From positions 46,066,001 to 46,130,000 of the forward strand of contig OX638153.1 of the NCBI GenBank assembly GCA_951804945.1: DNA of 64,000 nucleotides. Reading direction: 5' to 3'. The DNA is from Podarcis cretensis. Taxonomy: Eukaryota. The notes under the pieces are model-generated. The model saw only the letters and a program-made list of their open reading frames with translations. It had not been told where the DNA came from and ran no database searches. Positions within the stretch are counted from its first letter, which is position 1. Each line of letters opens with the position of its first letter. Positions 3,299 through 56,215 of the stretch are shown here, piece by piece. Both the position numbers and the translations under genes were made by a program.

Positions 3299-3669
3299 CC
3301 ACAGCGCGGGTGGCGCTGTGGGTAAAAGCCTCAGCGCCTAGGGCTTGCTGATCGAAAGGTCGGCGGTTCGAATCCCCGCGGCGGGGTGCGCTCCCGCTGT
3401 TCGGTCCCAGCGCCTGCCAACCTAGCAGTTCGAAAGCACCCCCGGGTGCAAGTAGATAAATAGGGACCGCTTACTGGCGGGAAGGTAAACGGCGTTTCCG
3501 TGTGCGGCTCTGGCTCGCCAGAGCAGCGATGTCACGCTGGCCACGTGACCCGGAAGTGTCTCCGGACAGCGCTGGCCCTCGGCCTCTTGAGTGAGATGGG
3601 CACACAAGCCCAGAGTCTGTCAAGACTGGCCCGTACGGGCAGGGGTACCTTTACCTTTACCTTTACCTT
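3299..3669 (+). mobile_element. Sauria SINE (Squam1), full length, young
   Basis: tRNA head GGTGGCGCTGTGG...GGTTCGAATCCC, (ACCTTT)n tail, 15-bp TSD aattcacatttttac (3284-3298 / 3670-3684), CpGs intact. Confidence 0.93.
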
Positions 3670-6321: not shown

Positions 6322-6563
6322 CAGTGGTACCTCGGGTTAAGAACTTAATTCATTCTGGAGGTCCATTATTAACCTGAAACTGTTCTTAACCTGAGGTACC
6401 ACTTTAGCTAATGGGGCCTCCTGCTGCCGCTGCGCCCCCTCCGTGTGATTTCTGTTCTCATCCTGAAGCCAAGTTCTTAACCCGAGGTACTATTTCTGGG
6501 TTGGCGGAGTCTGTAACCTGAAGCGTCTGTAACCTGAAGCGTCTGTAACCCGAGGTACTACTG
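6322..6563. mobile_element. Tc1/mariner (Tigger-like) MITE
   Basis: TA TSDs; TIR CAGTGGTACCTCGGGTTA / TAACCCGAGGTACTACTG; internal 15-bp tandem gtctgtaacctgaagc; second copy at 52886-53126. Confidence 0.9.
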
Positions 6564-6924
6564 TACACTGTTTGTTAACCGATATGATTTTTAATTGCAG
6601 TGGTTGTCTTACTCAGTATATACTTGTGAGACGTGTAAAAAAATAATAATGATTGTCTCAGTCACATTCAGAACTAAAGAAAATAAAACTGCTGCAAGTA
6701 GGAAATTGACAGTGGATGTGCAACATACTTGTTATGTTCAATTTATTAACACTAACCAACATATCCTCTGTGATGAACAGAAGCCACAAAATGTGCAGAG
6801 TGACTAAGTCTCATTAAAAGCAAGCAGCACGTACATTCCAACCACTGCAAATCTTCACGCTGCAGCCAACTGATGATAGTGCTTGCTTACAGGTAATGAG
6901 GCTGAAGAATGTGTGCATGTATGT

Positions 6925-9932: not shown

Positions 9933-11418
9933 TTATAAGAAGCAATGCAAATACAATTAAAAACCATCCAGCATCCAGCCCAATGCACAACAATTTTCAA
10001 GTGATCTATGGTAAAAAAATCTTTAGAAGCTGGCTCATGAGTGCACATAAAATTCCTTTCTAGCCCCATCAGCCAAGTCGTGCAGCCACAGCAGTGTCTA
10101 GAGGATCACTGAGTGCTGGGAGGGGTGCAGAGAGCACAACTGGATGCCTTCATCTACCACAACTGCAGCAAAACATGTCTCTCACATATCGGTCTCTACA
10201 GCCACAGCAGGTACTGTAGCTCTTCAACAGTTTGACTTCAGCCCTGAAGTAGCACTTTGCCATTGTCTCCCAAAACTGATGAATGGCAACCAAAGTCCCA
10301 CCAACCAGTGGTGCTAACCTTTGTCCATAGAAATGACAAACATGGTTGGGCGGAGAAGTCAATTACTCCAATGCTAGAATTCTAGATAAGGCCAGTAGTG
10401 GACAGCATGGTGGGGCGGTGGGACTTACCTGACCTCCAGGTGGCTGAATTTCTGCTGCTTATCAGGAAAGAGAGGCAAGGGGATGGCCATTGGCGAGGTT
10501 AGCACAGTGCAAACACAGCAGCAGAAATACTGGTTGGGCTCCACTTGTGTGTGTGCACTGCACTGACCTCCCTACCAACTTGGTCCTCTGCTTCTTCTCA
10601 GTAAGCGGTAGCAATTCTGTGCCCTGGTCAGGTGAGGGCAGCCCCATCACACCATCTGCTACTAGGTAAGGCCTCAGGGATAGCCTGGGAGTGAATCTTA
10701 AGGAAGAAGTTGCATCCACTCCAATGTCTCACCCCTAGAGGCCTTCCGGCACAGCCAATTTACTCTGGAGGAGAGGTATGACTTGGCAACAGATACCCTA
10801 GTTCATCACCAGCAGCACCAGGGACAGGATTATCTCCTCGTTCTTTTCCTCAACTGCCTCCCATGGTGAACACAATAAGGAACCCATGGAAAGCCAGGAC
10901 CAATAGTTTGATGTAAGTCAAGAAGTTCAGTTTGTGAATATGCTTAAACCCCAGGCATTAAAGTCAAATTATCTGTAAAGTACTTAACATTCCAATTTTT
11001 AAAGTGGAATATTCCTTTCAAATTGCCAGTAATTTCCAGAATCTTTTTCTGTGGATGAATTGCCTGCATTTTATTCCTGCACTTTGACTGCATACATTAA
11101 GCTCTGATTCAAAACAGATCTGCTATATTTGCAGGTAATCTAGATTCTAGACTATGGTTTGAGAATCAGTTAATGTGAACTGCCAGTGTAAAGACTATAG
11201 GGAATCCACAAAGCATTTAGATGTGACCGCTGTGGCATCTCATCTACTCTTGCTTACGTTGTTATGCTTCATTAAACCCATCAGTATACTTGGAGCCAAT
11301 AGGTTTGAGTGAGTCATAGGAAGCCTGAGGTATTATATAATTGGAATGTGCTGTGTTCTTCTCTTAATTGAATTTTTTTGCTGAGAATAAACAATATTTG
11401 TACTTCTAATACAGTCCT

Positions 11419-11786
11419 AGGGACGCAGGTGGCGCTGTGGGTTAAAGCCTCAGCGCCTAGGACTTGCCGATCGAAAGGTCGGCGGTTCGAATCCCTGCGG
11501 CGGGGTGTGCTCCCGCTGCTCGGTCCCAGCGCCTGCCAACCTAGCAGTTCGAAAGCACCTCCGGGTGCAAGTAGATAAATAGGGACCGCTTACCAGTGGG
11601 AAGGTAAACGGCGTTTCCGTGTGCGGCTCTGGCTCGCCAGAGCAGCGATGTCACGCTGGCCACGTGACCCGGAAGTGTCTCCGGACAGCGCTGGCCCCTG
11701 GCCTCTTAAGTGAGATGGGCGCACAACCCCAGCGTCTGTCAAGACTGGCCCGTACGGGCAGGGGTACCTTTACCTTTACCTTTACT
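11419..11786 (+). mobile_element. Sauria SINE (Squam1), full length, young
   Basis: Near-identical to 3299-3669; 12-bp TSD taatacagtcct (11407-11418 / 11787-11798). Confidence 0.93.
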
Positions 11787-37559: not shown

Positions 37560-37791
37560 TCAATCAGTTGCTTGCAAAATGTTTCGACTCTGTGATTCAC
37601 TTGTGAGGGCTGATGAATTTATTGAGCTCCTTTTCAGCATCTTGTTTATTATGTCCTTCCATGTCTTCTTGTACTGGTGTCGTAACAAAGAGTACACAAA
37701 GGGATCTGAAACAGCTTTGCTATAAGCCAGACACTTGGAAATAACTCCCCAGTGTGCGTTGATGGGGACTATGGATGATAATTCTACCAGT
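37560..37791 (-). CDS. GPR26: GPR26 coding exon 3 (ECL3, TM7, C-tail)
   Basis: ttttcttgacag| acceptor. Reads (R)LVELSSIVPINAHWGVISKCLAYSKAVSDPFVYSLLRHQYKK...NILQATD*; 668+114+232 = 1014 nt = 337 aa + stop. Confidence 0.97.
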
Positions 37792-38470: not shown

Positions 38471-41339
38471 AAATTGCTTCTGAAAATACAGGAGACACCC
38501 CCAACATGGTGCCCTCTGGATGCTTTGGACTACAATTCCCTTAATCCCTGACTATTTGCCATACTGTCTGGGTTTTGATGGGACTCAACAACTGGAGGAC
38601 ATGAGGTTGTGGAAAGCTGACATAGAGGTTTCCATTTAGTTAACTTGACTGTATATGTACAGATACAAAAAACAAAAAAACCACCCATACTTTTATATCT
38701 GAATACCTATATCACCAACATGATATAGTTAGCACATACAAACAAATTGTGCTTATTGTCTCTGTATCTACTCAAGTACACAATTGCAGAGGAAAACCAT
38801 ACTGGGGCCTGGACATTTTACGGGAGATAGTTGCAGCCATCTCTATAAATGTACCTTTCCTTATTTCAAGAAAAAAAGATTATCCAGAGAAATGGGTATA
38901 GCTGACTCAATTGCATTTGAAATAATTCTCATGTGAAGGAGCACATTTATTATTCATTTAAAATATGCTGCTTATCTTTGTAAAACCAAGACAGCTTCAG
39001 TTAATTAAAACACTATACAAGATACCAAAGACATATAATAAAAATGAGACTAAAACAAAACAATTTCTGTTGGAGATGGGGGGGGGGGAGGTTTTGCTTG
39101 TCTCTGAAAAGGCAAGCTAGCATGAAGAGCAGTGAATTTCAGAAATGGCATTTTGAAACTGGTTATCCATATGCAATTTTCAGGATTGGCTTCAGGACCT
39201 CTGGGGAAGCAGGTATTTGAAACCCCCCACCTCCTAATACTTCCTGAAAAATCCCCATATCAATGTTGTCTCTGTGAACATATATATGTCACTCAAGGAA
39301 TAATTCTGAGGACCTTCTGAACTGGACAATGTTCTCTATCCTGGGCTGACCTAGTGAACTGCTGGAGTGTGCACTTGCCTACATAAACTACAGTGACCAT
39401 ATACAAACAAGGACAGGGTTCTGCTGTTTTAATAGTTGGTATGGCAAGGTACGCCTGTTCAATTTCTTCTTCTTCACAAGTATTTAAGGGGTGGGAGCCT
39501 GATGCTTTCCCCCCTATCTTGTCATCTTAATATAAACTGAGAGTGGGGAGGAGAGAAGAAAACAGGACACTTTTGAACCCTTGTGGATCCTTCCCCCACA
39601 TAGATGTTGCACCTGTGTAGGGAAGAGTCATGCCCTAGGTGAACACTAGTCCCCTTGCACACCATTACTGCTAGTGCAGAGGTAAATCAGAATGGACGCA
39701 GGAGCTGAGCTTATTTATAGGCACTGTTACCCAAGGGGAACATTTGAAGGTAATGGTATACTATTGATTTTAAAGTGAACAATTAGTTCCACTTTCTTAT
39801 AATTACTTTCTGTCAGGTTCCAGATGGGATTTTTCTGTCACATGCTATGAGTGCCACTCTTGTGTGTAAGATCTCCATTAAGAAGCATTTCAATTTATGC
39901 AGGCCATTCTGTGGTTTTTTTTCTAGAAAGGCTTTCACTGAATAGGTTAAGGAAGTCACAATGTAGGAAAAAGCATAATTCATACTCTCATTGCTATCTG
40001 AATACTTTCCCCGCTCGAAAGGTAGAGTTATTGATATTCTGATGGAAGTTGATGAAAGCTCTGTGAATACCCTGAAACACTAAGATGCAAAGTGGTTTAT
40101 ATCTTACTTGCTATCAATCAATGTTATGAATTCCAACTAACCTTTTATAAAAGAACATCGAGAAGAAATGGCCTTCAAAGGGGAGGGGGAGTTTAGAAAC
40201 TTATTACTACATTTCCTTGAGTGCCCTTCCTTTCCCCTCAAATTTTCATACCATACAACACTTGGAAATACAACTGATAATGTTTTTATTTTTAAATTGT
40301 GTCTGTGTCTTATATCCCACTGGATATAATTTATCTAATTGCACTCTAATTGAGATAATTAGTTCTACGTGCAAAAGCACATGCTCATGGACTTCTATTA
40401 GATGCTTATCCAAATGGAGGTGTCATTTACGGAACCAGGCACAATGTGCCCAGGCCATCAGGATGGGGAGAGGGAATGAGAAATAAGGAGAAATAATGAC
40501 AAGGGATCACAAGCATGGGATCAAAATGGCCCCAACATTGTTAATTACAGATACCAGTAGGTTTTGGCATAAGCATTGGGTGTATATCCTGAACCAGCTA
40601 ACCCACTTGTTGGGTGATTTTCCTTCAGGGTCAATCCCTATGGTGCTAATCAATTCTGGGTAATCCCTCTGGAATGCAAATTTGGGGAGTGCTATGGCCC
40701 ATTAGCCCTTGTCTGGGCATTTGGACAGTATCCATCCCCCTGGACTCTTTTAACCGGGTATCCTGAAACTTTGACCAATGAAACAGGGGTTAATGAAATG
40801 GGGCTGAATGAAGCCAGGTTTGGGGAGGCTTCTCCCAGGTCTGCCCTGACCTTCCCACCCCTAAACTTGTGTGCAGTTGGGCAATTAAAATTTTAAAGTT
40901 TCACGGTGGGGCCTGCCCTCCCATGCAACCAGTGGAGGAGTTTCGTGGGCTGTCAGGTCTTGTGAGGGCAAGCAGATGCCGCTCTGACATACCTGCGGCC
41001 ACACTGGGCCACAACTGCCACACACACACACGTTGGAATTGGTAAGCAGGCTTTATTCATCCTACATTGTTTTCAGTCGGGTGTATGTTCAGATGCACAT
41101 CAAAATGCACATTTCCATCCATATTCTGATGCAGTTGATCCTGTATGACTCCAGCTGAATGACTCCAGTTGAATTGTGAAATATCCCTATTTCCCCCATA
41201 CATCCATACAAACAGTTTTTAAAGCAGTTTTTCAGCTAATAGTAGTTTTGGGGAAGGTTCATTGCTCAATGGCAGAGAATTTGCCTAGCATGCAGAAGGT
41301 TTAAAGTTTAGTCCCTGGCATCTCCAGGTAGGGCTTTTA

Positions 41340-41478
41340 AAAATGCTTTTTAAAAAAAACATTTTGAAAAATACATTGAAATTGCCATAACTCACCATCG
41401 CCATCTAGTGTCACATTTGTATGCTGCAGTTTACAACACACTTAAAACGTTTTATTTGCAGCTGTATAGCTGAGTCCT
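41340..41478 (-). repeat. Unclassified ~140-bp dispersed repeat with CTCF-like motif, copy 1
   Basis: Reverse complement aligns end to end with 49131-49268. Confidence 0.85.
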
Positions 41479-41480
41479 CA

Positions 41481-41580
41481 GTTCTGGCACCTCTCAGGTG
41501 ACCACCATTTCCATTATAAGAGAACAAGGGAAGCATTGTTGGTGAGTTCTGGTACCTCTTTTTCTAGAAAAATGGCACTG
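41481..41580. mobile_element. MITE fragment; related copy at ~61985-62105
   Basis: Shared ccattataagagaacaaggga...ttctagaaaaat(g/a)gc core. Confidence 0.65.
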
Positions 41581-41769
41581 CATATATGTATTGGATTTCA
41601 CTAACAGTAACACTACCTAGTAGCAACTTACACGTAAACTTAAAAGTAGCTGACATTTAATAAACACTTATTTAATAAGCACTTCTAACACTGACATTTA
41701 ACAATGGATTGCACAGGGGCGGGCGGGAAGTCTTTCATGCTAGAATCAATGGATCTTGAATGTGGACAT

Positions 41770-41930
41770 ATTAAACATATATTGAGTCAGACTGTGAGTT
41801 CATCTAACTCAGCATTGTCTATACTGCCTACACTGACTGTCAGTAGCTGTTTAGGGTCTCAGACAGGGGTCTTTCTTAGCCCAACCTGAAGATACCAAGG
41901 ACTGAATCTAGGTCCTCTTGGGTACAAAGC
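41770..41930 (-). mobile_element. Squam3-like SINE, degenerate
   Basis: atattgagtcagac...catctaactcagcattgtct...cactgactgtcag...ccaaggactgaatctagg. Confidence 0.55.
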
Positions 41931-43626
41931 ATTATTATTTATTAAATTGTTTATTAAAAGTGTTAGCTGCCTTATCTTGCCCAAGGCAACCCAAAGCGCT
42001 TTCAACCAGACAAGCACATGCTGTATTGCTGAACTACATCCCCCCTCCAAGTATTTGATTTTTATTTAATAAGCACTTCTGAGTATCCAGCTACTAAAAA
42101 AAAAATGGAAGTGGAAGAAAGGTGAGTGACAAGCTTCCTACAGTCTTGACTTTTATCAGGGCACTGAACACTGCTGTTAATCCCACTCCAAGTTTAATGG
42201 GTGCCAAGATATTATCATTTTTTCCAGGAAGCGCTTGGTCAAAAATAAATCAACACATTCCAAATGTTCAGAGAAGCTAACATAGCCTTTTAGCTCATTC
42301 CCTCTTATGTTGCTTCTGAAGCACAGTAATCCACATTTCAATAATTCATTTCCACCAGGCCAATTTTGAGTGAGGTTTATAAATGCAGAGGGTTTTTTTT
42401 TTTTGCTTCTTGCCTGCAACATAGCAACAAAGCCGGGGTTTCTGTGAACCTCTCTGATACTGGATGCAAAAATGTTCATAATTCAACAAGGAATGTCATA
42501 ATATCTATTATTTATTTATTTTACAATTGTCATTCAAAATTAACATTGTTGTGCATCTTCTAGCACTTATTAATCAGGAATAAGCTGTGAACAGCAATAC
42601 TGGTTTTGTAGCTCCAGGTCTGAAAAACTGTGATATGACCTGTTTGTGATGAACCTTTCTCATAAGACTGATGCATCTTAAGAATATAGAGAGGCAACCT
42701 CAAATGTTATTCCACAATGGCTTCTAAATGTTGGGGTGGTGTGCAAAAAAAGGGGTATCACCAGTTATAGCTGAAGGGGGCCAAGAAACATTGTGGAAGA
42801 AAGTAGATACAGTAAATGACAAAATTCAAAGGGCTCTTGGATATTATCAGAATTAAATGGCCCAAACAGTCTTTTCTCTTCATGGGTGTTTTTTTTAAAG
42901 AAAAATGTGTTGGGATTACATTTTTCTACCTCATAGTAATCAGATACCGTGGATCCTGAATGAAAACCCATGCAGTAAGCTCTTCTCCTGTTCAGTATAT
43001 TCTCTTGCGTTACCACTCCCATTGAGCTTTTTGTCCATCCATCCATCATACACCGTGGAACAAGTCATTAGTATTCTGTCACTATTACGCACATTTTGGG
43101 CTGTTTTTGTACTTTGGCAAAACTTGGAGTTTCTTTAAAACTGATGATATCTCCCCCTTATGCATGGAGGATGTCATTTTGATAATAAGGACCAGGACTC
43201 AGAAAATGCTGGCAGTCCCTTCATTCAAATGCTTGCTGTAAACTTGGCACATCTGTGTACATTAATTTAAAGTAGCCACCATGTGTCCCAGAACATCTGC
43301 TCTGCATCACACAGCACAACATACCCACTGAAATGTGCGGACAACATTCTGAATTCTATGTGATCTTCTTTGATGAGAGTCTAACTGTATTCTCCTTAAT
43401 CCATATCAAAGACTTTCCCACTGGGATGCTGGATTTGATCCTTTCCACTACCAAATCTTTGGCCACAGTTGGGACCATAAAATGCAGGCGCCTAAGATGG
43501 CAATGCTTCTCAGCACAGTGAAAAATGCTTAGCATAATTTTGACAAGCAGAAGTTTAATTGTCTGCTGATACAAATAACAGGAGTGTGCTGCAGATAGAA
43601 ATGAGAAAAGACTAGCTTAAACCTAC

Positions 43627-43740
43627 CTTGTGATTACATATGGTGCAAAACAGAGTATAAAAGTGCCAATAAATGTACTGATCTTCTTGGTTGCTCGTTG
43701 TCTCCGCCTCTTCTGTTCTTCTAGGCATCGCTCTCTTACA
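43627..43740 (-). CDS. GPR26: GPR26 coding exon 2 (ICL3-TM6), 114 nt; absent from the ORF track
   Basis: cag| acceptor (AG 43742-43741) and AG|gtaggt donor. Translates (S)VRERCLEEQKRRRQRATKKISTFIGTFILCFAPYVIT(R); phases 2/2 fit exons 1 and 3. Confidence 0.97.
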
Positions 43741-45083
43741 CTGTTTTTTGACATAAAAACATGAATGCAAATTATCATTTCAAACAGCATTTCATCACCT
43801 TGACTTAGAAGCCATGCTCAGGCGTTTGCCTGAAGATGCACAAAAACAAAGAGCGCTGACACAGTAAAAGGGGCTGAGGGGGAGCAAAGTAGCTCACATG
43901 GCCTTGCTGAGTCAGGGGTGGGGAAAACCAAACCTGAAAGCTGACTATAACCCTCCAGAATTCTCTGTCTCATCCTTGGAATTCTTCCCAAGCTACACCA
44001 TTCATTGGCTCTGCTTGGTGCCCCAAATGTGTTTGCCTTTCTGGAATGTGTCCTTGAACTCTGATAATGCCTCTTGCTGGCCTGCATGGGGGAAAGGTTG
44101 GGGTGTGCAGGTGTGTGTAGAAGACATGCCTGTAAGCATAGTAGAGGGCTCCTCCACAAGAAGCCCAGGGGGAGGATTAGCAATAGCATGCCCCACCCTG
44201 GTTGCCCAGTGAGACCCTGGATGCTTGCCTTGCACCACGCCGGGGCTCAGTGCTGGGTTATTAACATGGAGGGGGGCTAGGTACCTCCCTGACAGAGTGT
44301 CATTCCATTAGCAATGGCTGGTGGAATGAGGAACAGGATCCTCGCCCTACTGCCATGCCAACTCTGGTTTCTACCATAGTCATAAAGATTTGGCCTGATT
44401 TTTACCCAACCCTGCATCCCACCTTAATTATTTCACTGGGCCACAGATTGTGCCTGCCTAGGCAATCCGCCTTTGTGATGGATTGGGGCCTAATTTTGCC
44501 AACTACTATGGCAAGTAGCCTCATGGATTTGTAGTGAAATGATTATTTGCTTTAGATTAGAGGAATTCAATGCTCTTTTAAAATGTGACACTCAGCTGGG
44601 ACATAGAAAATGCATTGACACAAGCCCTTCTGTAGATTACGGTAGTTTGGGGAAAATTTTCACCTAACTCAGATAGGAGAATCTTTTGAGCAGTAACATA
44701 TTCATCTCTTAATATAAACCAATGCTTTCAAACTATACCTTTTCAATAAGCAGGCTTCTGGTAAGTAAACTGAACATTTGACATACTAAGGAAAAGATCA
44801 TATTTTGGAAAATTATTAATACATTCTTATAGTTGCAATTCAATTAACAACATAGGTGAAAGAGTTTTGAAATCTGAATCTGATGTAACTCAAATAATTT
44901 CAGCCGGGGAGCTCAAGATCCAGATAGAAGGATGCCACAAGAATCCTTGTGGGCATTGCATAGTGGACTTTCAAAATTAACTTGGGTTAATCCAACAGAA
45001 AATGTATCTAAATTCGGTACTGGTGACAAGAGATGCTTCCTTCCCAGCCTAGTAACTTATTTAATTGGTATGAGGGGGAATTG

Positions 45084-45795
45084 GCATACTCTCCAAGTGT
45101 CCCTATTTTCCAGGGACAATCCCAGAATCATGAAAGGCATCCTGGCTTCTGATTTGGCCATGGAATGTCCCTATTCCCCCTGCCAGTGCCACCTCCAAGC
45201 TCAAGGAGGAGGATGAGCCAGTGGCAGAAGAAGTGGTGGCTACAAGCTGCCCACCTTCTCTCTTGGACAAAACGGTCCACCTGCTGCCTCCTCGTCAGCT
45301 GTAGGGTAGCTGGGAGGAGGCAGGCAGACTCCTTGGAGGCCCTGCAGTGTGCCCTGCGTTGGCTGGCCCCACACCTGGGCGCAGGGCACACACGCCGCCC
45401 CAGGCGCCCGATTGGCTTGCTCTGCTGCTGGCCAGCTCTGAGGTGCAGGCAGAGAGCAGGTTTGCCCTGGGCAGGAAGAAAGGGGAGTGTAGCACAAGGA
45501 GTCTTTATTTATTCATCTATTTATTTTTTTAAAAATCCTTTGTAAACTTTCCCCTTTCTAAAGTTTATTTATTGGTATGTGTTTTTCTTTTTGTAAATCT
45601 ACCATAGGATAAAATAAAATAAAAATCGGGATTAAGGGGTTTTCTTGGAGTGGTGTGTTGTTTCCCATTGGTGTGGTGGTGGTACAAATGCTCTGTAAGG
45701 TGGGGGAGAGAAAAAATGGTGGGATGAGGAGAGTCAGTTGCAGGAATGAGGGAGAAATGTCCCTATTTTTATCTGAGGAATGTTGGAGGGTATGC
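45084..45795. mobile_element. Non-autonomous DNA-transposon-like element with GC-rich interior
   Basis: Terminal inverted repeats gcatactctccaa / ttggagggtatgc; repeated tgtccctatt motif; shorter relative at ~32510-32643. Confidence 0.6.
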
Positions 45796-47598
45796 AATGA
45801 CGGTACCTTTGCATCGAGGGAAAGGGATAAATCGACCTGGCCTACATACTGTGGTTCTCCTCCCCTCATCTCATGACTGCTATTTAAAGAATAAAAACAT
45901 GCACTTTAAAAACTCACACACATTTAACGTCACATGAATTTTGACCTTAACGCAAAGTATTGAATGAGGTTTAGGGGTTAAAGATGTGGAGACCATAACC
46001 CCAACCAGCCGTATTTTGTGCTGTCCTTGCCTACATGCTTGCTTTGCAGTCTGCAAAATCTGAACATTTATCCAGCTCCCCTCAGCTGGAAGGCCATGGC
46101 CAGGTTGATAGGTTAGAAATTGCACAGGCCTGACAAAAGAAGAGACTTGGCTGTGAGCAGAGCACTGTGGATTTTGAATACTTAAATAATAAATGATCAT
46201 ATATTATTGTGCTGTCCAAATGAACTGGGTTTTTTAATGCTTTCATTTAATATTTCTGTTAATAATTGCTAAATGAACACTACCATGTCTGACTTTTTTC
46301 TTTGGGATGTTATTTGAAGAGCCATGAGGGGCAAAAACACATTGGAGATTGAATAGTGTATATGATTTCTATGTTGCTACATTTGGTGCAGGAATATTGA
46401 ATATACATGGCATGTAATTGGCCTGAGGTGGTCCAGAGTTGAGCCAATTCTGGGCTGTTTTCAGCCATGTGAAAAGCTATTAGGGTCTTAAAATAGCCAT
46501 GATGTCCTGATAAAACACTTGGCTGAAATCAGTGCTATTTCTGTACGCAGAGTAGAAAGGTAGCTGAAGAGAAACAAGCCTCTTAGTTCAGGTTGCCTTT
46601 GACATTTAAATAGGGTTAAATGCAACTCTTTAAATCAGTCACACGTATTACATTAGTCATTTCTTTAGGTGTGATGTCATAATAGATTGCTGCCCCCAAG
46701 CTGCTCCTTTCAGAATTGGATCTCAGTACATTTTGAGTAGGTTTGCAGGAAGATTGTGGACACTTGCAACATATGTCTGGGCAATGTGTAGGGCCAAAAT
46801 CTTACTCCGCTGATTAAATCAAGAAATGTCTACATGACTGATGATGCACATTGATGATGCACATTGATGGAAAGAGGTAGAAAAAATATATATGCTATGC
46901 TTATTATTCCCAAGCCAGTCTCCATGCAATAGATAATTTAACAGATCACATTTTGCCTGATTGACGTAGCTTTTCTTGGAATGAGCTGGAACAGACTTGT
47001 TAATTTTGCGTAAATTATGAGATGCAGAGCAGATGACCCAGGCGTTACCTGTTTCAGAATATGACTCCTGTAAACATGTATATATTGCTCCTGAAAGGGA
47101 CATGCCTGCATAGATGATTTGGTTTGCTATTTACTATTTTGTCCATAGCAAAAATATTTGTTCAAAGCAAATGTGTGCCTGCAATATTGACTGGGCGGTT
47201 CATATAGGATATAGTGGTTCATATTCTGAGGAATCTAAGCATAGATCTTGCCAAGCTGCCTTATTTGCGAGTATCTTGCCCGTGCAATGGACTCATGGGA
47301 AAAATAGCTGTCCCATGAGCCCTTGCAAAAGGAAGGGGAAGACTATATAAGCCTGCTTCCTCTGGTGCTCAGGGCCATGTTGCCTTGAGAGCTTCCTGCC
47401 CACCTCCCCTCGAGCTAGAGTCTTCCCAGAACAATTTTGGGTTGCCGGTTGTCAGGGCCAGAAAGGATTTGTTTTCCCTCTCAACCTGATTGGCACCTCC
47501 ATGCTTGGTTTGGCGTATCTACCTGGTTGGAATCTGCACCTTGGTCGCCCAGTGAGACCTTGCTTTTTTGGCAAGGTTCAGCACTGGCCAACTCCAAT

Positions 47599-47948
47599 GG
47601 AACGTGGGTGGCGCTGTGGGTTAAACCACAGAGCCTAGGACTTGCCAATCAGAAGGTCGGCGGTTCGAATCCCTGCGACGGAGTGAGCTCCCGTTGCTCG
47701 GTCCCTGCTTCTGCCAACCTAGCAGTTCAAAAGCATGTCAAAGTGCAAGTAAATAAATTGGTCTCTGGCGGGAAGGTAAATGGCGTTTCTGTGCACTGCT
47801 CTGGTTCTCCAGAAGCGGCTTAGTCATGCTGGCCACATGACCCTAAAACTGTACGCCGGCTCCCTTGGCCAATAAAGCGAGATGAGCACCGCAACCCCAG
47901 AGTCGGTCACGACTGGACCTAATGGTCGGGGGTCCCTTTACCTTTACC
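47599..47948 (+). mobile_element. Sauria SINE, full length, antisense in GPR26 intron 1
   Basis: GGTGGCGCTGTGGGTTAAACC...GGTTCGAATCCC...(ACCTTT)n; flanked by a 36-bp direct repeat. Confidence 0.93.
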
Positions 47949-49130
47949 TTTGGCAAGGTTCAGCACTGGCCAACTCCAATGGAATGGGTTTGGGGTGGTG
48001 CAAGCCTAGCGGACCCATCAATGTGGGTTTTGTGGAATGATGAACCAATCCTGGCCTCAATGCCATGCCAACCTATGCCTGATCCAGCAGGCTTATGACT
48101 TCTTATGAGAAAGACCAGAGATTGCATGATCTCCAATGCACTTTTAGTGAGTGCAGCAGCTCCCATCCCTACACCAGTAGAACGCTGTGAAGGTGCCCTC
48201 AACTAACTCCAAGCAGCCGCACAGATCAGGGGTTAGGGTTGTTCTGCACCTCTCTAAAGAGCGATGCAACCATTTTCATTTTTTCCTGCATCTCCTTGAA
48301 ATCTATGCTGCGTAAATGTGCAAAGGGGGGTAAGGTTCATAGACTTTCCTTTTTAGGCCTGGAATAGTTTAAGATGCTATCATCTCTTGGACCAATAGGT
48401 TTGTGTAACAAAAAATAAAACAAACCTTTGAGATGGCCACAGATTTCTTTTTTTCTGTCTAAAATAGGAAGTACAAAATGCAGAAGAGCTGTTGTGGCAG
48501 CTGAGGTCACTTGGCTAGCCGGAGCACACTGAAAACTCCGATAAATGAAGTTAGTTCAAGAAGGAGGTTACAAGATCATGGCAATTAGCATCCATGTTTT
48601 GCTCCTTAGACTGGCTAGAGAACATAATCTTGTTAATATGTGACATTTCTTTCCTTTTGCTCTGCTCAAGCTGCACAAAATGCCTGTATTTTGGCAGTGC
48701 CGTAAACATAACTAGAAAAAGAAAAAGAAAACCACACAAGTGTTAATTGGATAGCCAAGTCTTTGCAGGTGTTTTCCTCGCAAGAACCCTTAGTGGCCGG
48801 GCATAACATGTCTAAATATTGTGCAATTGGCTTCAACACCCAGTTAGAACTACTGTAATGTGCTCTCTGTGGGCCTGCCCTTTAAGACAGCTTATAAACT
48901 GCTGGTGGAAAGCAAGACAAGGCTCCTGTGCCTTTCATAGTTGCGTAGCACAAAGAATTTCATCAGGTGTAATGAAAGTGCCTCGTTGAACAAAAGTGAG
49001 TGTATACATGGTAAAGTCTGCATGTGGCTGCTGTGTCTTCAGCTAGCTTTTATGTATGAGAGATTGTTTAACACAGGAACCACACCCATGAAGGCTTTCA
49101 TTGGTGCCTCTGGGCAAGTGCCTCAGACCC

Positions 49131-49268
49131 AGGACTCAGCTACACAGCAGCAAATACAACGTCTTAGATGTGTTGTAAAGTGCAGTGTACAAATGTGACA
49201 CTAGATGGTGAAAGTGAGCTATGGAAAATTCAATGTATTTTTCAAAACGTTTTTTAAAAAAGCATTTT
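49131..49268 (+). repeat. Unclassified ~140-bp dispersed repeat with CTCF-like motif, copy 2
   Basis: aggactcagcta...tgcagtgtacaaatgtgacactagatggtg...caatgtatttttcaaaa...aaaaagcattt. Confidence 0.85.
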
Positions 49269-50321
49269 CACAGCGTTCAGATCAACTGTTAGTTCTCTGT
49301 TTCATATCATGAATGAATTTAGTTCTCTGTCTTCTGGTAAAACTAAATCCTCAACTTCTCATTTGGCCAGCTAGAAAGTTCATTCGCAGGAGATAACGAG
49401 TAATTGCTTCTGTTTCATGAACTACTTCTATCAAGAAAATTCTGAGTTTCGTACGCAGCTCTAGCATTACATCTCCAGCATAAATTCTCTGGGCACCTAA
49501 TGAAGTTTTATAAAGTAATATTTACAGCTACATTGGAACTATTTTTGCTTGTTTATACATATGGATTATTTTGTTTGTTTGTTTGTGTGTTTGCTTATTA
49601 TTTATTATTATTCTTACATATAGATTTTTTTTTTTTGGTATGGAACTGTTTTTAATTGTTTCTATACTTTTCTTGTTTTGTAACAGTTTTATTTCCTTAT
49701 TTCTTTTATAATGATATATTTTATTTTTGTAACCTGATCTGGGAGGTAAGAAATAAAATAAGGGTGGTAAGAAATAAAATAAATAGATAAATAAGAACAT
49801 AGGAACATAACAAGAACCTGCTGCATCAGTCCAAAGACCCATTTAGTCCAGCACTCTCTTCTTACAGTGGCCAACCAAGATGGGAAGAAGTTTCCCCAAC
49901 CATCGGAAGAAGCTTTCAGGTAACAGACTTTCCCAACCCTATACAGACACATCACGAAATTGAACCTAGGATCTATTCATAAGCAAAACATGTCCTCTAC
50001 TATTGAGCCACAGCCCTTCTCTGAAGCTCGCTGCTTTTCAACATTACCCAAGTTCTTTTCCAGACAAATTGGAAGAGCCCAGGATCTTTTATCCTTGAAC
50101 CATTCTGAAGGCTTGGAAAGGCTATCTCCTGCTTTCTTCCATTCTTTCTACCCACCCCTAAGTTTGTACCCCTTAGCGTTGGGGTACAAAGCATCTGCAG
50201 GGGCAAAATAAGAGGGTAGGTAAAGTCTAGCTCAAACAGGTTCTCCCGCTTAGATTTCTTTGAAAAAAGAAGAAAGAAAATGCAAAATCTAACAGATTAG
50301 CCAAATTGAGTTACTCCATAA

Positions 50322-51437: not shown

Positions 51438-52885
51438 GGTGCCAACACCCTTCAGCCCCAACCAGCGTGGCCACTGGGCAGGGATGATGGGAGTTGTAGT
51501 CCCTAATGTCTGATGGACACTAGGCTGGAAAGGGTTGATACAGGAGTTTTTGATAAGGTGATGCCGTCGAGCTTAGCTGCAAAGCTACAAGTGAGAGAGA
51601 TCTGAGTTTGGAAAGTCAGAAGGATCAGTTTTCTTCCATTTCCCTCTGATCATAAACCAAAGAGTGGGAGACAGAAGTGTTGAGTGAACCTAGATCTGCC
51701 TCAGTCCTTCCATATGCCTCCCAGTCATACTGAGCGGAACTCCTTTGGCCATTCCAATTTAAGGCACCATAAGGCATCTTCCTACTTAACATTGCTCAAC
51801 TGCCGGTTGCTGCATAGCCCTAAACAAAAGGCTTGTAAATGACTTTGCACCATGATGTACAACCAATTCTGGAGGCGGGGCAGGGGGAGACATATCCTGA
51901 CATCTGGCATAACATCATTCATTCTGGCTGCACAAATTTGGTCAATGTTTCCTTTATAAAAACGACTTTTGGGAAGGATTTACAACTTACCTTAGGTGGT
52001 ATGCAGGGAGTCTGGTATTACAGAAAGACTATAATTAAGGACTTTTACGGTGATATAGTGCATATTAGCCTCCCATATTAACAAGAGAAGGAATATAAAA
52101 TTTATAACACCTGGAATTAACCATGGTTACCAGAAATCACACTTTGAGCTGAATGCTACACTTCAAAAATAAACTCCCATTATCCATGTAAAAATAAGAT
52201 CCACTAGGAAATTAGCATAAGGAATGATTTGGTTTTTCAGAGACTTGATTATTTAGCACTTTGCTCTATCCATTTGCTGTTTTGATACTGACTGGTCACA
52301 GAACACCCGGATTTATTTTCAAGCTAAATGAAATATATGTCAAATATCAGTGAATGTATTTGATAAATATTCGATATCAGCTCTTTAAAAAGTACAATCT
52401 GATATGCATTTACTAAAAAATAAGCTCCTCTCTTCCTCTAGTGCAGCCAGAGGGGGCGGATTTAGAAGCTTACACTTCTACTTTAGACTAGCTGCACCTA
52501 TGTGCTATTTCTGAATCCAGGCAAATTGCAGTTTGTCCTATGGTTAGTTGAAACATGCTATTGTCCTGATTTAAATTGGCAACTGCTTTTAGCCACAGTG
52601 AAGACAGGTGCTCATATTAATTTGTAGCTTTCATTCCCTCTCCCTCAGTGAGGCTAATAGTGATTTAAACTGGAGAAATGACCCTGAAGGGATGGATACA
52701 ACTACCCCCTGCTGTGCTACAGCGTTTGTATCTCACCTCTGCCCTTTTAAGCCCCCACAGCTATTTCCAAGTAAATTTGAATCCATTCACTGGTCTGCAA
52801 TGCCATGCATAGATGGGCCATAAGATATTGGGATATGGATGAAGCAACTCCCAGTTTGCATCTCATCTCTGTCACAAACTCACTA

Positions 52886-53126
52886 CAGTGGTACCTCAGG
52901 TTACAGACAGCTCGGGTTACAGACGCTTCAGGTTACAGACTATGCTAACCCGGAAGTAGTACCTCGGGTTGAGAACTTTACCTCAGGATGAGAACAGAAA
53001 TTGTGTGGCGGAGGCGCAACGGCAGTGGGAGGCCCCATTAGCTAAAGTGGTACCTCAGGTTAAGAATGGTTTCAGGTTAAGAACAGACCTCCAGAACAAA
53101 TTAAGTTCTTAACAGAGGTACCACTG
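52886..53126. mobile_element. Tc1/mariner MITE, same family as 6322-6563, opposite orientation
   Basis: TA TSDs; CAGTGGTACCTC...GAGGTACCACTG. Confidence 0.9.
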
Positions 53127-53775: not shown

Positions 53776-55389
53776 CTTCACTGTATACTTTTCAATGCCT
53801 GCTGAAGAAATTCTTATTTAGGCAAGCTTATTCAGATGTTTCAAAAGTTTGTATGAGCTTATTTTTTAAAAAATAGACTACTGTATTCTGGTTTCAACTT
53901 TCTGTATGCTTCAAATTATGGCTGTATTCTTTTTTTAGTGATAGTTTTATTGTTTCAACTTATTGCGCACTGCTTTGAGGGTTTTTTTTTGCACAATCAA
54001 GTGGTATGTAAATTTTATGAAATAAAAAGAAAAGAAAATAGCATGCAAAATTATATATATTCCCATCAAGTCCTTGCCTCCCCGCCTCCTCTCCCTTGAC
54101 CAGCTGCTATTACTCACAGTGAAGGGAAAAGATAGGCAGCTACATTACTTTGTTCCTGTCTTCCACAGGTTCTAAATGATCGAAATTTAACTCAGCCTTT
54201 TTAGGAAGCCACCACACTGCATTACTATTGCCTCATCAATGTATAGATACAGAGAGGGGGGTGGGGGAGACAGAGAGAAAAATTATGAGTAGCTGCGTAG
54301 CTGGGACCTTCATTAAACCCATCTCTCTTTCCTATATTCTTCCGGTGAGGTTTTTCCCCCACCCCCCACATCCATGCATTCCCACTCACACCAGAATCCT
54401 TTTTTCTCCCTGTCACATACTTGGTTACACTTCTCCCTTCTTTTTTTCTCCCCCAACTGAAAATCTCAACAAACTCGTTGTACCTTCATCTCCCACAAGC
54501 AAAATCTACTCTAGCAAAGTCAGTCAAATAACATTCCACCTGTCAAATCTTCTCACATCTGATATCTAAACCTCCACTACAAAGATCCCCTGGTTATATT
54601 TCTTCTTCATTCTCTGTGACATTCCCTTTTGTACCTCCCCCTAGTTATCCCTCCCCATCCTAGTCATTGCTTGCTTCCTCTCCCCTCCCTTGTCTTGAGA
54701 CTCCCATACCTAGAAAATATGGGTTGATTTAAGGTCTCTCGAACAAGTCTCAAGTCTCCTTTGCTTGTCAGTACTAATTTGAATCTCAATGCTATTTTGG
54801 ATGTATTTGTACCTAGTTGGTTGCTCATGCTTCTTTTGGAAATATTATTTCTCTGGGCATCCTTCCTTCAAGGAAAATAAAGTTATTGACTCCAAAGTGA
54901 CATTCACAAAGTCACAGAAAGCAGAATGGTATTCAGTGTGCTATCTCCCCACTGCAGTTTTAAGGAACACAAGGAATTTCAGCCTGAACCAGTTCATCAA
55001 ACACCCATGGACGTTACTGATTAACTTTAATGAACAGGCATGATGAATCTGTTCATGGTAAGTGAAAACAGCAAAGATTCAAGAACACTACCTGAAAGGA
55101 CATGTATGCACATGCAAACCTTTTGATTCCACTATAGCCCTCAAACACAGCCAAGGATTCCTAGATGACATATTTTGCTCTTTGCAGGATATAATTGGCA
55201 ATTAATTTTGTAGCTACAAGGAGACCTGAGAATATAAGCATGCAGATTAGAATTAGGCAAGTGCTACATTAAAAAAAAAAATTACAGATGGATGGCAATT
55301 GAGTCTGATAATAAACATAATCTTGCCTCTCTGCAGGTATCCTCAGAAGTGTGTGCCCTTGGCAGTCAAGGACACAGGTATCTCCTTAC

Positions 55390-56057
55390 CTGGGATGGAT
55401 GTCCACCAGCAGCACGAGGGTCTGCATAGTGATCACGTCAATCCTTTTACAGTGAAAGCGTGCCACCTTCAGCACTTTTAGATATGTGAAACACAAGACT
55501 ACGAGGGAGAGGAGGAAGCTGAGAGAATGAAAGACCCCTGTGAAAACCACAAACTCTGTCCTGTCCTCCAGTTTCTTGTTGTAGAGGGTGCAGGAGGCAT
55601 AAAGGTGATGGAAACCCACCCAAGAAAGAGAAGTTGCCACTATAGGAAAAGAAACTGAATGCAACCATGTATAGCTCAGTATAAGAGCAGCATCTTTGTA
55701 ACGCATCTTGGAATGGTAGTTGAGAGGAAACACCACCGCTATCCACCTGTCTATGCTTAGAGCTGCCATGCTCAGCATGGAGCTGGTGGTCAAGAAAGTC
55801 TCTAAAAAACCCACGATGTGGCAGAGCTGGTCTCCTCCAGGCGGCTTCTTGTAAATGATCCCAGCCAGGGTCAGGGGCATGTTCAAAACAGTCATCAACA
55901 AGTTGCAGAAGGTCAGGTTGAGGATAAACAATCCTGGGACTTGCTTGCGGATATCTGCGCTGTACAGAAAGCAGATCAGCACCAGCACGTTGGACAGCAG
56001 TGAGACAAGGATGAGTACCACAATCAAGAAAGCCAGGATCACTTCCCAAATGTTCAT
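55390..56057 (-). CDS. GPR26: G protein-coupled receptor 26, coding exon 1 (TM1-TM5, start of ICL3)
   Basis: ATG at 56057 in gcaccATG context. MNIWEVILAF...SADIRKQ...SMLSMAALSIDRWIAVVFPL...KVARFHCKRIDVITMQTLVLLVDIHP matches GPR26; donor AG|gtaagg at 55390/55389; 668 nt. Confidence 0.97.
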
Positions 56058-56215
56058 GGTGCCTCCATTCACAGGAGGAACATTTCCAAAACTGCACCCA
56101 GCTGGCATCCAGAAAACATGGTGTGAGGCACTCTCACACCCTCCTCCTCCTCCCCAGCCTGCTCACACTCCTGCATGCCCTCAGTATTTTTAGAAGAGCT
56201 GCAGTTTTTTCCTCT

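Follow-up and report, generated by a model that had tools for sequence, protein, structure and literature searches.

Why do two copies of a repeat lie in inverted orientation on either side of GPR26 exon 2 in the lizard Podarcis cretensis, and what does the CTCF-like motif inside each of them do? The window that we analysed, a 64,000-nucleotide stretch of contig OX638153.1, had been given a functional reading in a first-pass annotation: a dispersed lizard repeat of ~140 bp that carries complete bipartite CTCF sites, placed here in a divergent, boundary-type arrangement. We indeed found that an inverted repeat pair flanks the exon, with a similarity far above chance and motifs that point apart; the arms at 41348-41478 and 49131-49261 (131 nt) are 86% complementary, and the copies share 87% identity over 139 nt (BLAST). 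The full element measures about 170 bp, and its 3' end is missing in both copies. The gene is presumably GPR26, judging by its protein and by CPXM2 next to it. All CTCF bit scores and the p values for them, here and below, come from a matrix that was not taken from a published copy. The features are:

41335..41477, minus strand: left copy, a MITE of family A, 3'-truncated, element positions 1-142 of 170 (nhmmer)
41399..41428, minus strand: TGCAG, 12 nt and a CTCF-like core with its CpG intact; 14.2 bits, p 4e-6
43627..43740, minus strand: GPR26 exon 2, 114 bp, AG/GT bounded, between the two copies
49132..49277, plus strand: right copy, a MITE of family A, 3'-truncated, element positions 1-146 of 170 (nhmmer)
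49181..49210, plus strand: TGCAG, 12 nt and a CTCF-like core with its CpG decayed to TG; 8.7 bits, p 6e-5
55386..56162, minus strand: open frame with GPR26 coding exon 1 (context)

The two copies resemble each other far beyond chance because both are copies of a dispersed repeat. Consistent with the first-pass proposal, a first look recovered 2225 candidates in the genome; the size of family A was estimated at about 2,570 copies by recapture (10/35), and exact B-type 3' ends number 837. The consensuses are 154-184 bp long and have no coding capacity. An exact 3-bp TSD flanks 30 of the 66 family A copies that retain both ends (in shuffles, 3.0 on average and at most 8) and 15/41 copies of family B (2.0 shuffled), and duplications of 4-9 bp were seen in 0/66 family A copies. 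The duplication is a degenerate YNR, with TTA or TAA in only 6/30, and the target is palindromic around C-YNR-G (C at -4 in 68/90, G at +4 in 42/66), with A/T preferences beyond these positions mirrored on both sides. The element ends, GG...CC, are sharp and conserved, and by eye they are complementary at ~10/15 positions in family A and 7/15 in family B; terminal inverted repeats of 14-25 bp are expected of PIF/Harbinger MITEs. The two window copies belong, in truncated form, to a clade of 170-bp non-autonomous DNA transposons (MITEs) that is likely of the PIF/Harbinger type. SINE, LINE, hAT and Tc1 origins are excluded by the duplication length, and Zator, whose TSD is a 3-bp TWA, was set aside because, judged by description, the degenerate extended target fits it less well.

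Like the Tourist-like PIF/Harbinger MITEs mPing and Harbinger3N_DR, the lizard elements are short, non-coding and high in copy number, with a 3-bp duplication, short terminal repeats and an extended target preference (PMC2836001, in excerpt). Unlike them, the clade has a degenerate YNR duplication and only partly complementary ends, and no autonomous partner sharing its ends was found with PF13359 (12 matches of 15 candidates) or by protein search (15/41). The intact transposase frames resemble single-copy domesticated genes, and around three broken transposase remnants clade ends are absent over about 5 kb. A decayed autonomous partner could have escaped these searches.

Compared by eye with the subfamily consensuses, the left copy is A1b-like and the right copy A1a-like. 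The copies thus differ at subfamily-diagnostic positions, which argues against local hopping of one from the other. Chance probably accounts for the position of the pair on either side of GPR26 exon 2.

The motif described earlier as TGCAG-N10 is present in each copy; we read the identical sequence as TGCAG, 12 nt and then ACACTAGATGG(C/T)G. Its core is CTCF-like, as had been stated, except that the first core base in family A is A and the CTCF consensus has C. A comparison with background had been suggested as a check, and the family A consensus core clearly exceeds it (14.4 bits, p about 4e-6; 0/2000 shuffles as high). Consensus scores are 14.2-14.5 bits in family A and 18.1-22.4 bits in families B-D, where 16.75 bits corresponds to p 1e-6, and single copies reach p<=1e-5 in 21/65 (A) and 29/41 (B) cases. 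The element supplies most genomic instances of the core word CACTAGATGGCG, with 24/30 sampled matches being element copies. Family A scores lowest of the families yet is abundant, so the motif has not been optimised upward; at position 17 of the matrix both A and B2 show a C>A change, which lowers the score.

Most documented cases of CTCF sites spread by transposons are from mammals, and two accounts have been given of why transposons carry them: host exaptation after insertion, or benefit to the element. The lizard clade lets these two be told apart from sequence. Decay of the motif as fast as its flanks, which the first-pass annotation had taken to speak against a functional site, is what the inserted copies of families A and B reveal. 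Core mutations in family A amount to 43/688 versus 184/3219 in the flanks (6.3% vs 5.7%, p 0.59), and in family B to 26/448 versus 233/2982 outside the core (p 0.15). The motif CpG of family B is retained in 17/38 copies, compared with 110/249 at other CpGs (p 1.0). In family A it is retained in 28/56 copies versus 33/107 at two other CpGs (p 0.018), and the comparison with all three gives p 0.11; this excess is a weak hint that some copies may be bound at the host level. Shielding of a copy's other CpGs by an intact core was not supported in family A (13/27 vs 37/110, p 0.18) or in family B (33/81 vs 77/168, p 0.50).

Between element lineages the pattern is different. Across nine subfamily consensuses, 11/13 columns of the 13-nt core are invariant versus 20/116 other interior columns (Fisher 1.8e-6, with columns that are not independent). 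Identity over 13 columns is 0.94 for the core and 0.95 for the 5' terminus, and 0.35-0.82 for the other interior windows sampled. When loci were chosen on the B-type 3' end alone, 59/70 clustered into families B, C and D, and the core is present in every consensus of these families, those of C and D being built from only 4 and 3 copies; family B was first found via the motif, and lineages with other ends and a lost motif would go unsampled. Judged by these consensuses, a new finding is that in the sister MITE families B-D, which were picked on their 3' end, the 13-bp core is as strictly conserved as the element ends. The six distinct between-lineage changes within the 19-bp site are tolerated by the CTCF matrix: they sum to +0.8 bits, where random changes give -20.8 (P=0.004, and P=0.007 for the inner 13 columns), a test with only these 6 changes behind it.

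A core constrained between lineages and neutral after insertion implies that the constraint acted in transposing source copies rather than in inserted ones, and it indicates a benefit to the element. Since the sister families all keep the predicted CTCF site, it likely served the spread of the transposon and not GPR26. Taken together, we favour, with a probability of roughly 0.58, the reading that the window copies are truncated MITEs, likely PIF/Harbinger, with a core that is conserved between lineages and decays once inserted, most likely since host CTCF helped source copies to transpose, and that their placement at GPR26 is likely chance. The wider formulation is more tentative, at somewhat less than even odds: a squamate Harbinger-type MITE clade may use host CTCF as a transposition cofactor, element-level selection having maintained its site in nine subfamilies with the same stringency as the termini, and may have distributed a few thousand motifs of CTCF grade over the lizard genome.

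A survival strategy of transposons based on CTCF binding was proposed by Schmidt 2012 (PMC3368268, in excerpt), and the mobility of mPing, a Harbinger-type MITE, is tuned by internal sequence (PMC9921582). For the lizard clade we envisage that a Harbinger transposase, since lost, and a Myb/MADF-like protein mobilised the elements in trans. Bound to the core of a donor copy, CTCF would leave the 155-185-bp element free of methylation and poor in nucleosomes, and might park cohesin there; in the germ line, the ends and the CpG-containing 11-bp subterminal repeats would thereby stay accessible, and gap repair with the sister as template would be favoured. Copies without the site would leave the amplifying pool, and the thousands of inserted copies would become methylated and erode, while a minority may remain bound and exapted. 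If true, this would be sequence evidence for the survival-strategy hypothesis in a cut-and-paste element and would offer a minimal 160-bp substrate for testing it; if CTCF binding holds, the clade would lend itself to a direct assay and would be one from which reptiles draw lineage-specific CTCF sites.

Similar to the rodent B2, dog and opossum SINEs, the element is a lineage-specific repeat that has carried a CTCF motif word to thousands of loci (PMC3368268, in excerpt). The SINEs are retrotransposons with ChIP-proven binding, B2 having both motif parts according to the same excerpt, whereas the lizard element is a cut-and-paste MITE whose upstream part is not consensus and whose predicted site is recognised by its conservation between lineages. 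MER20 and hAT-Charlie CTCF loop anchors (Choudhary 2020, PMC6979391) are likewise DNA transposons with an internal CTCF motif; however, their co-opted copies show reduced C>T decay (PMC6979391), which the bulk of lizard copies do not, and hAT is another superfamily, with 8-bp duplications (PMC3014272, in excerpt). No Harbinger MITE with a CTCF site was found in the literature searches; the lizard family may already have a Dfam or Repbase name.

The main rival explanation, clearly less probable although serious, is that the central block is the site of the element's own Myb/MADF-like protein, its transposase or another host factor, and that the CTCF likeness is incidental. It predicts the same pattern of conservation between lineages and neutrality after insertion, and it is in accordance with the binding of element DNA by Harbinger ORF1 (PMC2836001, in excerpt) and with the internal regions that raise mPing mobility (PMC9921582, in excerpt). 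The low-information CTCF positions (GTG, AT) are likewise conserved, as expected for any protein site. However, in families B-D the one internal block that is conserved falls on a CTCF match of 18-22 bits, and within the 13-nt core there are just two changes, a C/T exchange at a C/T-degenerate column and the gain of a consensus C. By eye, the core is also single and asymmetric, unlike the other, subterminal units, which are repeated on both arms. Other TIR-bounded MITEs that could serve as a motif-free control were not found in the flanks scanned.

A divergent boundary-type pair at GPR26, with the two copies serving as exapted bipartite CTCF sites, is improbable. The divergent orientation is real, and both copies carry TGCAG at the 12-nt spacing of the IL3 insulator site (PMC12885311, from oligo). 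Both are also among the 29 exact TGCAG-type matches genome-wide, from which about 0.1 divergent pairs would be expected (a rough post hoc estimate), and the left-copy site is the second best matrix match in the window. The right-hand site, however, is weak: having lost the core C, it ranks 24/27 among window matches above 8 bits. The 'complete bipartite sites' were not borne out at the family level either, as TGCAG is in both window copies but in no subfamily consensus; the upstream word there is TGCAA, TGCGA, TGCAT, TGCGT or TGTGC, and lies 11 nt from the core in subfamily A2. TGCAG occurs in 6/77 end-picked copies, and A>G is equally common at a control CAAT (6/68); CAAT>CAGT changes number 9/129 versus 60/2213 at other A columns (p 0.012). 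On these counts, TGCAG in the copies appears to arise from CAAT>CAGT hypermutability, a mutation context described in PMC3152918 (in excerpt). Copies with TGCAG keep the core CpG no better (13/29) than comparison copies (47/100, the first 100 listed of 138). Moreover, the site is intragenic, the two copies come from different subfamilies, and chance predicts about 9 divergent family A pairs with a spacing of up to 8 kb across the genome. Neighbours on contig C1 show no divergent excess, with 11 divergent, 8 convergent and 15 tandem pairs within 100 kb and 2, 8 and 9, respectively, within 60 kb. The GPR26 pair itself thus looks ordinary; of the earlier functional reading, a dispersed repeat with a CTCF-like core stands, but the bipartite family state and the boundary pair are not supported, nor is the core better kept than its flanks in the bulk of inserted copies.

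A motif that the MITE families share without selection, because modules were shuffled or because their left halves have a recent common ancestor, is equally improbable. Between-family likeness is 0.51-0.71 for left arms and 0.43-0.73, most of them lower, for right arms, and DNA transposons of anoles are reported to recombine between elements (PMC3014272, in excerpt). In all 10 pairings of the five major families, however, conservation of the core (0.85-1.00) far exceeds that of the adjoining left arm, which is invariant at only 11/44 columns.

The first-pass annotation had placed an inverted repeat pair with divergent CTCF-like motifs around an exon, and this arrangement is indeed present: aligned within the window, 41348-41478 and 49131-49261 are 86% complementary over 131 nt, and the motifs of the left and right copies are directed away from each other.

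41399-41428, minus strand: TGCAG + 12 nt + ACACTAGATGG(C/T)G of the left copy (sequence check)
49181-49210, plus strand: TGCAG + 12 nt + ACACTAGATGG(C/T)G of the right copy (sequence check)
43627-43740, minus strand: exon of 114 bp with AG/GT at its bounds, between both copies (sequence)
55386-56162 and about 37560-37790: further coding frames of the GPR26-like receptor, with the 114-bp exon

We take the receptor encoded by these three frames to be GPR26-like and the neighbouring last exon to be CPXM2-like. Subfamily-diagnostic positions differ by eye between the two copies, which indicates that they are independent insertions. Other common dispersed repeats of the window (at 3305-3664, 11424-11783 and 47618-47951, and at 6336-6575 and 52874-53113) make direct and inverted pairs that are longer than the pair around the exon, so an inverted pair is nothing unusual in this region.

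The claim that the repeat is dispersed was borne out, as the right copy retrieved 2225 first-look candidates from the whole assembly (G000, 1.51 Gb, 51 contigs), whose genes and repeats point to a squamate. The full-length element of this family (A) is ~170 bp long, and the window copies span positions 1-142 and 1-146, without the 3' end. We chose 90 copies by an exact 28-nt 5' pattern, leaving the motif unselected (first 100 listed of 339 genome-wide matches). A recognisable 3' end was found in 66/90, and 30 of these 66 carry an exact 3-bp target duplication, where shuffling gave 3.0 on average and 8 at most; duplications of 4-9 bp occur in 0/66. The insertion flanks form a palindrome around C-YNR-G; the ends are sharp, yet just partly complementary to each other. 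A 3-bp duplication with extended target preference is a PIF/Harbinger trait (PMC2836001, in part), and Harbinger elements are described with TTA/TAA duplications and TIRs of 14-25 bp (PMC3014272, in part). Recapture of the 5' pattern against a 3' pattern (735 matches) on contig C1 (10/35) gave ~2,570 copies, probably a lower bound. With CpGs excluded, copies diverge 5-7% from their subfamily consensus. About 11 family-A or motif matches cluster within 420 kb at G000:C1:121.6-122.1 Mb, well above the average of ~2 per Mb.

A sister family was found via three motif matches (496 candidates). A pick of 70 loci on the B-type 3' end alone (837 exact matches) fell into three clusters, with 52, 4 and 3 members, and left 11 singletons, most of which are fragments; 41 of the 52 are full-length and split into B1-B4, and the smaller clusters are families C and D. 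Target duplications occur in 15/41 family-B copies (shuffled 2.0). At L226/L228 (G000:C16:24178312-24178976) a family-B copy abuts a family-A copy across a TTA, in a unit duplicated locally 529 bp apart, and near-adjacent copies occur at two other loci (L030, L257); the clade A-D therefore sometimes inserts beside itself.

The CTCF likeness of the core was upheld: with a JASPAR-type matrix, on which all bit scores depend, the family-A consensus reaches 14.4 bits (p about 4e-6; 0/2000 shuffles as high), 21/65 full-length copies reach p<=1e-5, and the left copy (14.2 bits) ranks second in the window, while the right copy (8.7 bits) ranks 24/27 among window matches above 8 bits because its core CpG has decayed. 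The core word CACTAGATGGCG has 744 genome matches versus 85 for the reversed control; the first 30 comprise 24 from family A, 3 from sister families and 3 without a clade-model match, which resemble conventional CTCF sites. Three CTCF-like sites that do not belong to the clade (L182, L186 and L191) have a stretch similar to the upstream module; the L186 core starts with A and has TGCAA at 12 nt, as in the MITE, a hint that such a variant site can be genuine.

Among nine subfamily consensuses the core is invariant at 11/13 columns versus 20/116 other interior columns (11/44 in the left arm, 9/72 in the right arm). Across the five major families, core identity is 0.94 versus 0.95 at the 5' terminus, and the arms are 0.43-0.73 identical pairwise. 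On this matrix the B-D consensuses score 18.1-22.4 bits, with small C and D samples, and six distinct between-lineage changes sum to +0.8 bits versus -20.8 for random changes (P 0.004), figures to be read as coming from six changes, clusters of 4 and 3, and a family B discovered through the motif. Two changes fall within the core, a C/T at a degenerate column and the gain of a consensus C. Other TIR-bounded MITEs, sought in the flanks as a comparison set picked independently of the motif, were not found.

The inserted copies behave differently. Of the 90 family-A copies, 25 were left out because they are truncated or interrupted; in the 65 full-length ones, the 11 core columns outside the CpG are mutated in 43/688 versus 184/3219 in the flanks (p 0.59; 194/3284 with the single polymorphic column retained). 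For the bulk of copies this is the outcome that the first-pass annotation had itself named as refuting its reading. The family-A motif CpG is kept in 28/56, versus 20/56, 17/30 and 13/51 at other CpGs (p 0.11 against all three, 0.018 against two), a weak hint that some copies are protected there. Family B shows 26/448 versus 233/2982 (p 0.15), with the motif CpG kept in 17/38 versus 110/249 elsewhere, and in the clade copies checked an intact core did not protect the same copy's other CpGs. C>T decay is reduced in mammalian co-opted copies (PMC6979391, in part), in contrast to most clade copies here. By sequence comparison, these data show a core block constrained along source-element lineages and neutral in inserted copies. 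In the open-access literature on CTCF with lizard or squamate transposons, Harbinger elements, MITEs and non-mammalian DNA transposons, including PMC7786948 and PMC10794172, neither this clade nor any Harbinger MITE bearing a CTCF motif was found described; transposon-borne CTCF sites as such are known, and it is the clade-level conservation that appears new and makes the old survival-benefit hypothesis testable.

We infer that amplification required the core block in cis, or strongly favoured it. Host CTCF is the best candidate reader, because only one internal block is conserved, this block falls on a strong CTCF match, and the changes within it are ones that the CTCF matrix allows. CTCF on a donor copy would keep it unmethylated and nucleosome-poor and possibly hold cohesin there, and the transposase, with its Myb-like partner, would thereby retain access to the donor ends. 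A survival benefit from CTCF binding was proposed by Schmidt 2012 (PMC3368268, in part), and internal sequence tunes Harbinger-type MITE mobility (PMC9921582, in part). In the main rival reading, the core is recognised by a DNA-binding protein of the element itself. An autonomous partner of the clade was not found among the matches of Harbinger family (12 matches, 15 candidates) and protein (15 matches, 41 candidates) searches of G000, and we therefore name family A a Harbinger-type MITE rather than a confirmed member. Three broken Harbinger remnants have no clade ends nearby, and the intact frames resemble single-copy domesticated genes. About eight loci within L121-L131 hold intact, CpG-rich, single-copy Harbinger-transposase-derived frames (several of 428-540 aa), the L128/L129 frame presumably resembling HARBI1. 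These frames agree with the domesticated single-copy Harbinger-derived genes reported for anole (PMC3014272, in part). Clade MITEs lie within ~2.5 kb of two domesticated loci (L331:2490-2607 and G000:C1:52018270-52018414), probably by chance.

The suggestion that the repeat disperses complete bipartite CTCF sites did not hold. The 12-nt TGCAG-core spacing is that of the IL3 insulator site, judging from an oligo in PMC12885311 (in part). However, the family-A state is TGCAA, with G in 4/64 full-length copies; TGCAG occurs in 6/77 end-picked copies, and the corresponding G in 6/68 at another CAAT that is not part of a motif; and the TGC block, by eye the final unit of an 11-bp subterminal repeat, varies in sequence between lineages. 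The family therefore does not disperse complete sites. A>G changes within CAAT are frequent (9/129, compared with 60/2213 in the remaining A columns; p 0.012), a context known to be hypermutable in humans (PMC3152918, in part). Exact genome-wide matches number 29 TGCAG-type and 138 TGCAA-type, and core CpG retention is equal in the two (13/29 versus, counted by eye, 47 of the first 100 listed).

The boundary-type reading of the pair is also weak, and the pair as given appears ordinary. With ~2,600 copies, chance predicts that ~36 pairs of neighbours lie no more than 8 kb apart and that 9 of these pairs are divergent. Among the 181 clade copies on C1, neighbours within 100 kb are divergent in 11 cases, convergent in 8 and tandem in 15 (2, 8 and 9 within 60 kb). 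Counting against chance, both window copies are of the exact TGCAG type, which has 29 matches in the genome; by a rough post hoc estimate, 0.1 divergent pair of this type is expected. A better boundary candidate than the right copy is 10430-10448 (plus strand), outside the MITE and between the CPXM2-like and GPR26-like genes, which at 15.6 bits is the top matrix match in the window. A second repeat family in the Podarcis genome carries a CTCF-like core: 11/30 sampled matches of a strong core word (L196, L201, L202, L204, L205, L207, L208, L214, L216, L218 and L219) come from a single young repeat that has no relation to the MITE, with matches paired LTR-like on the same strand 4.6-12 kb apart (for example G000:C2:48948028 and 48954825).
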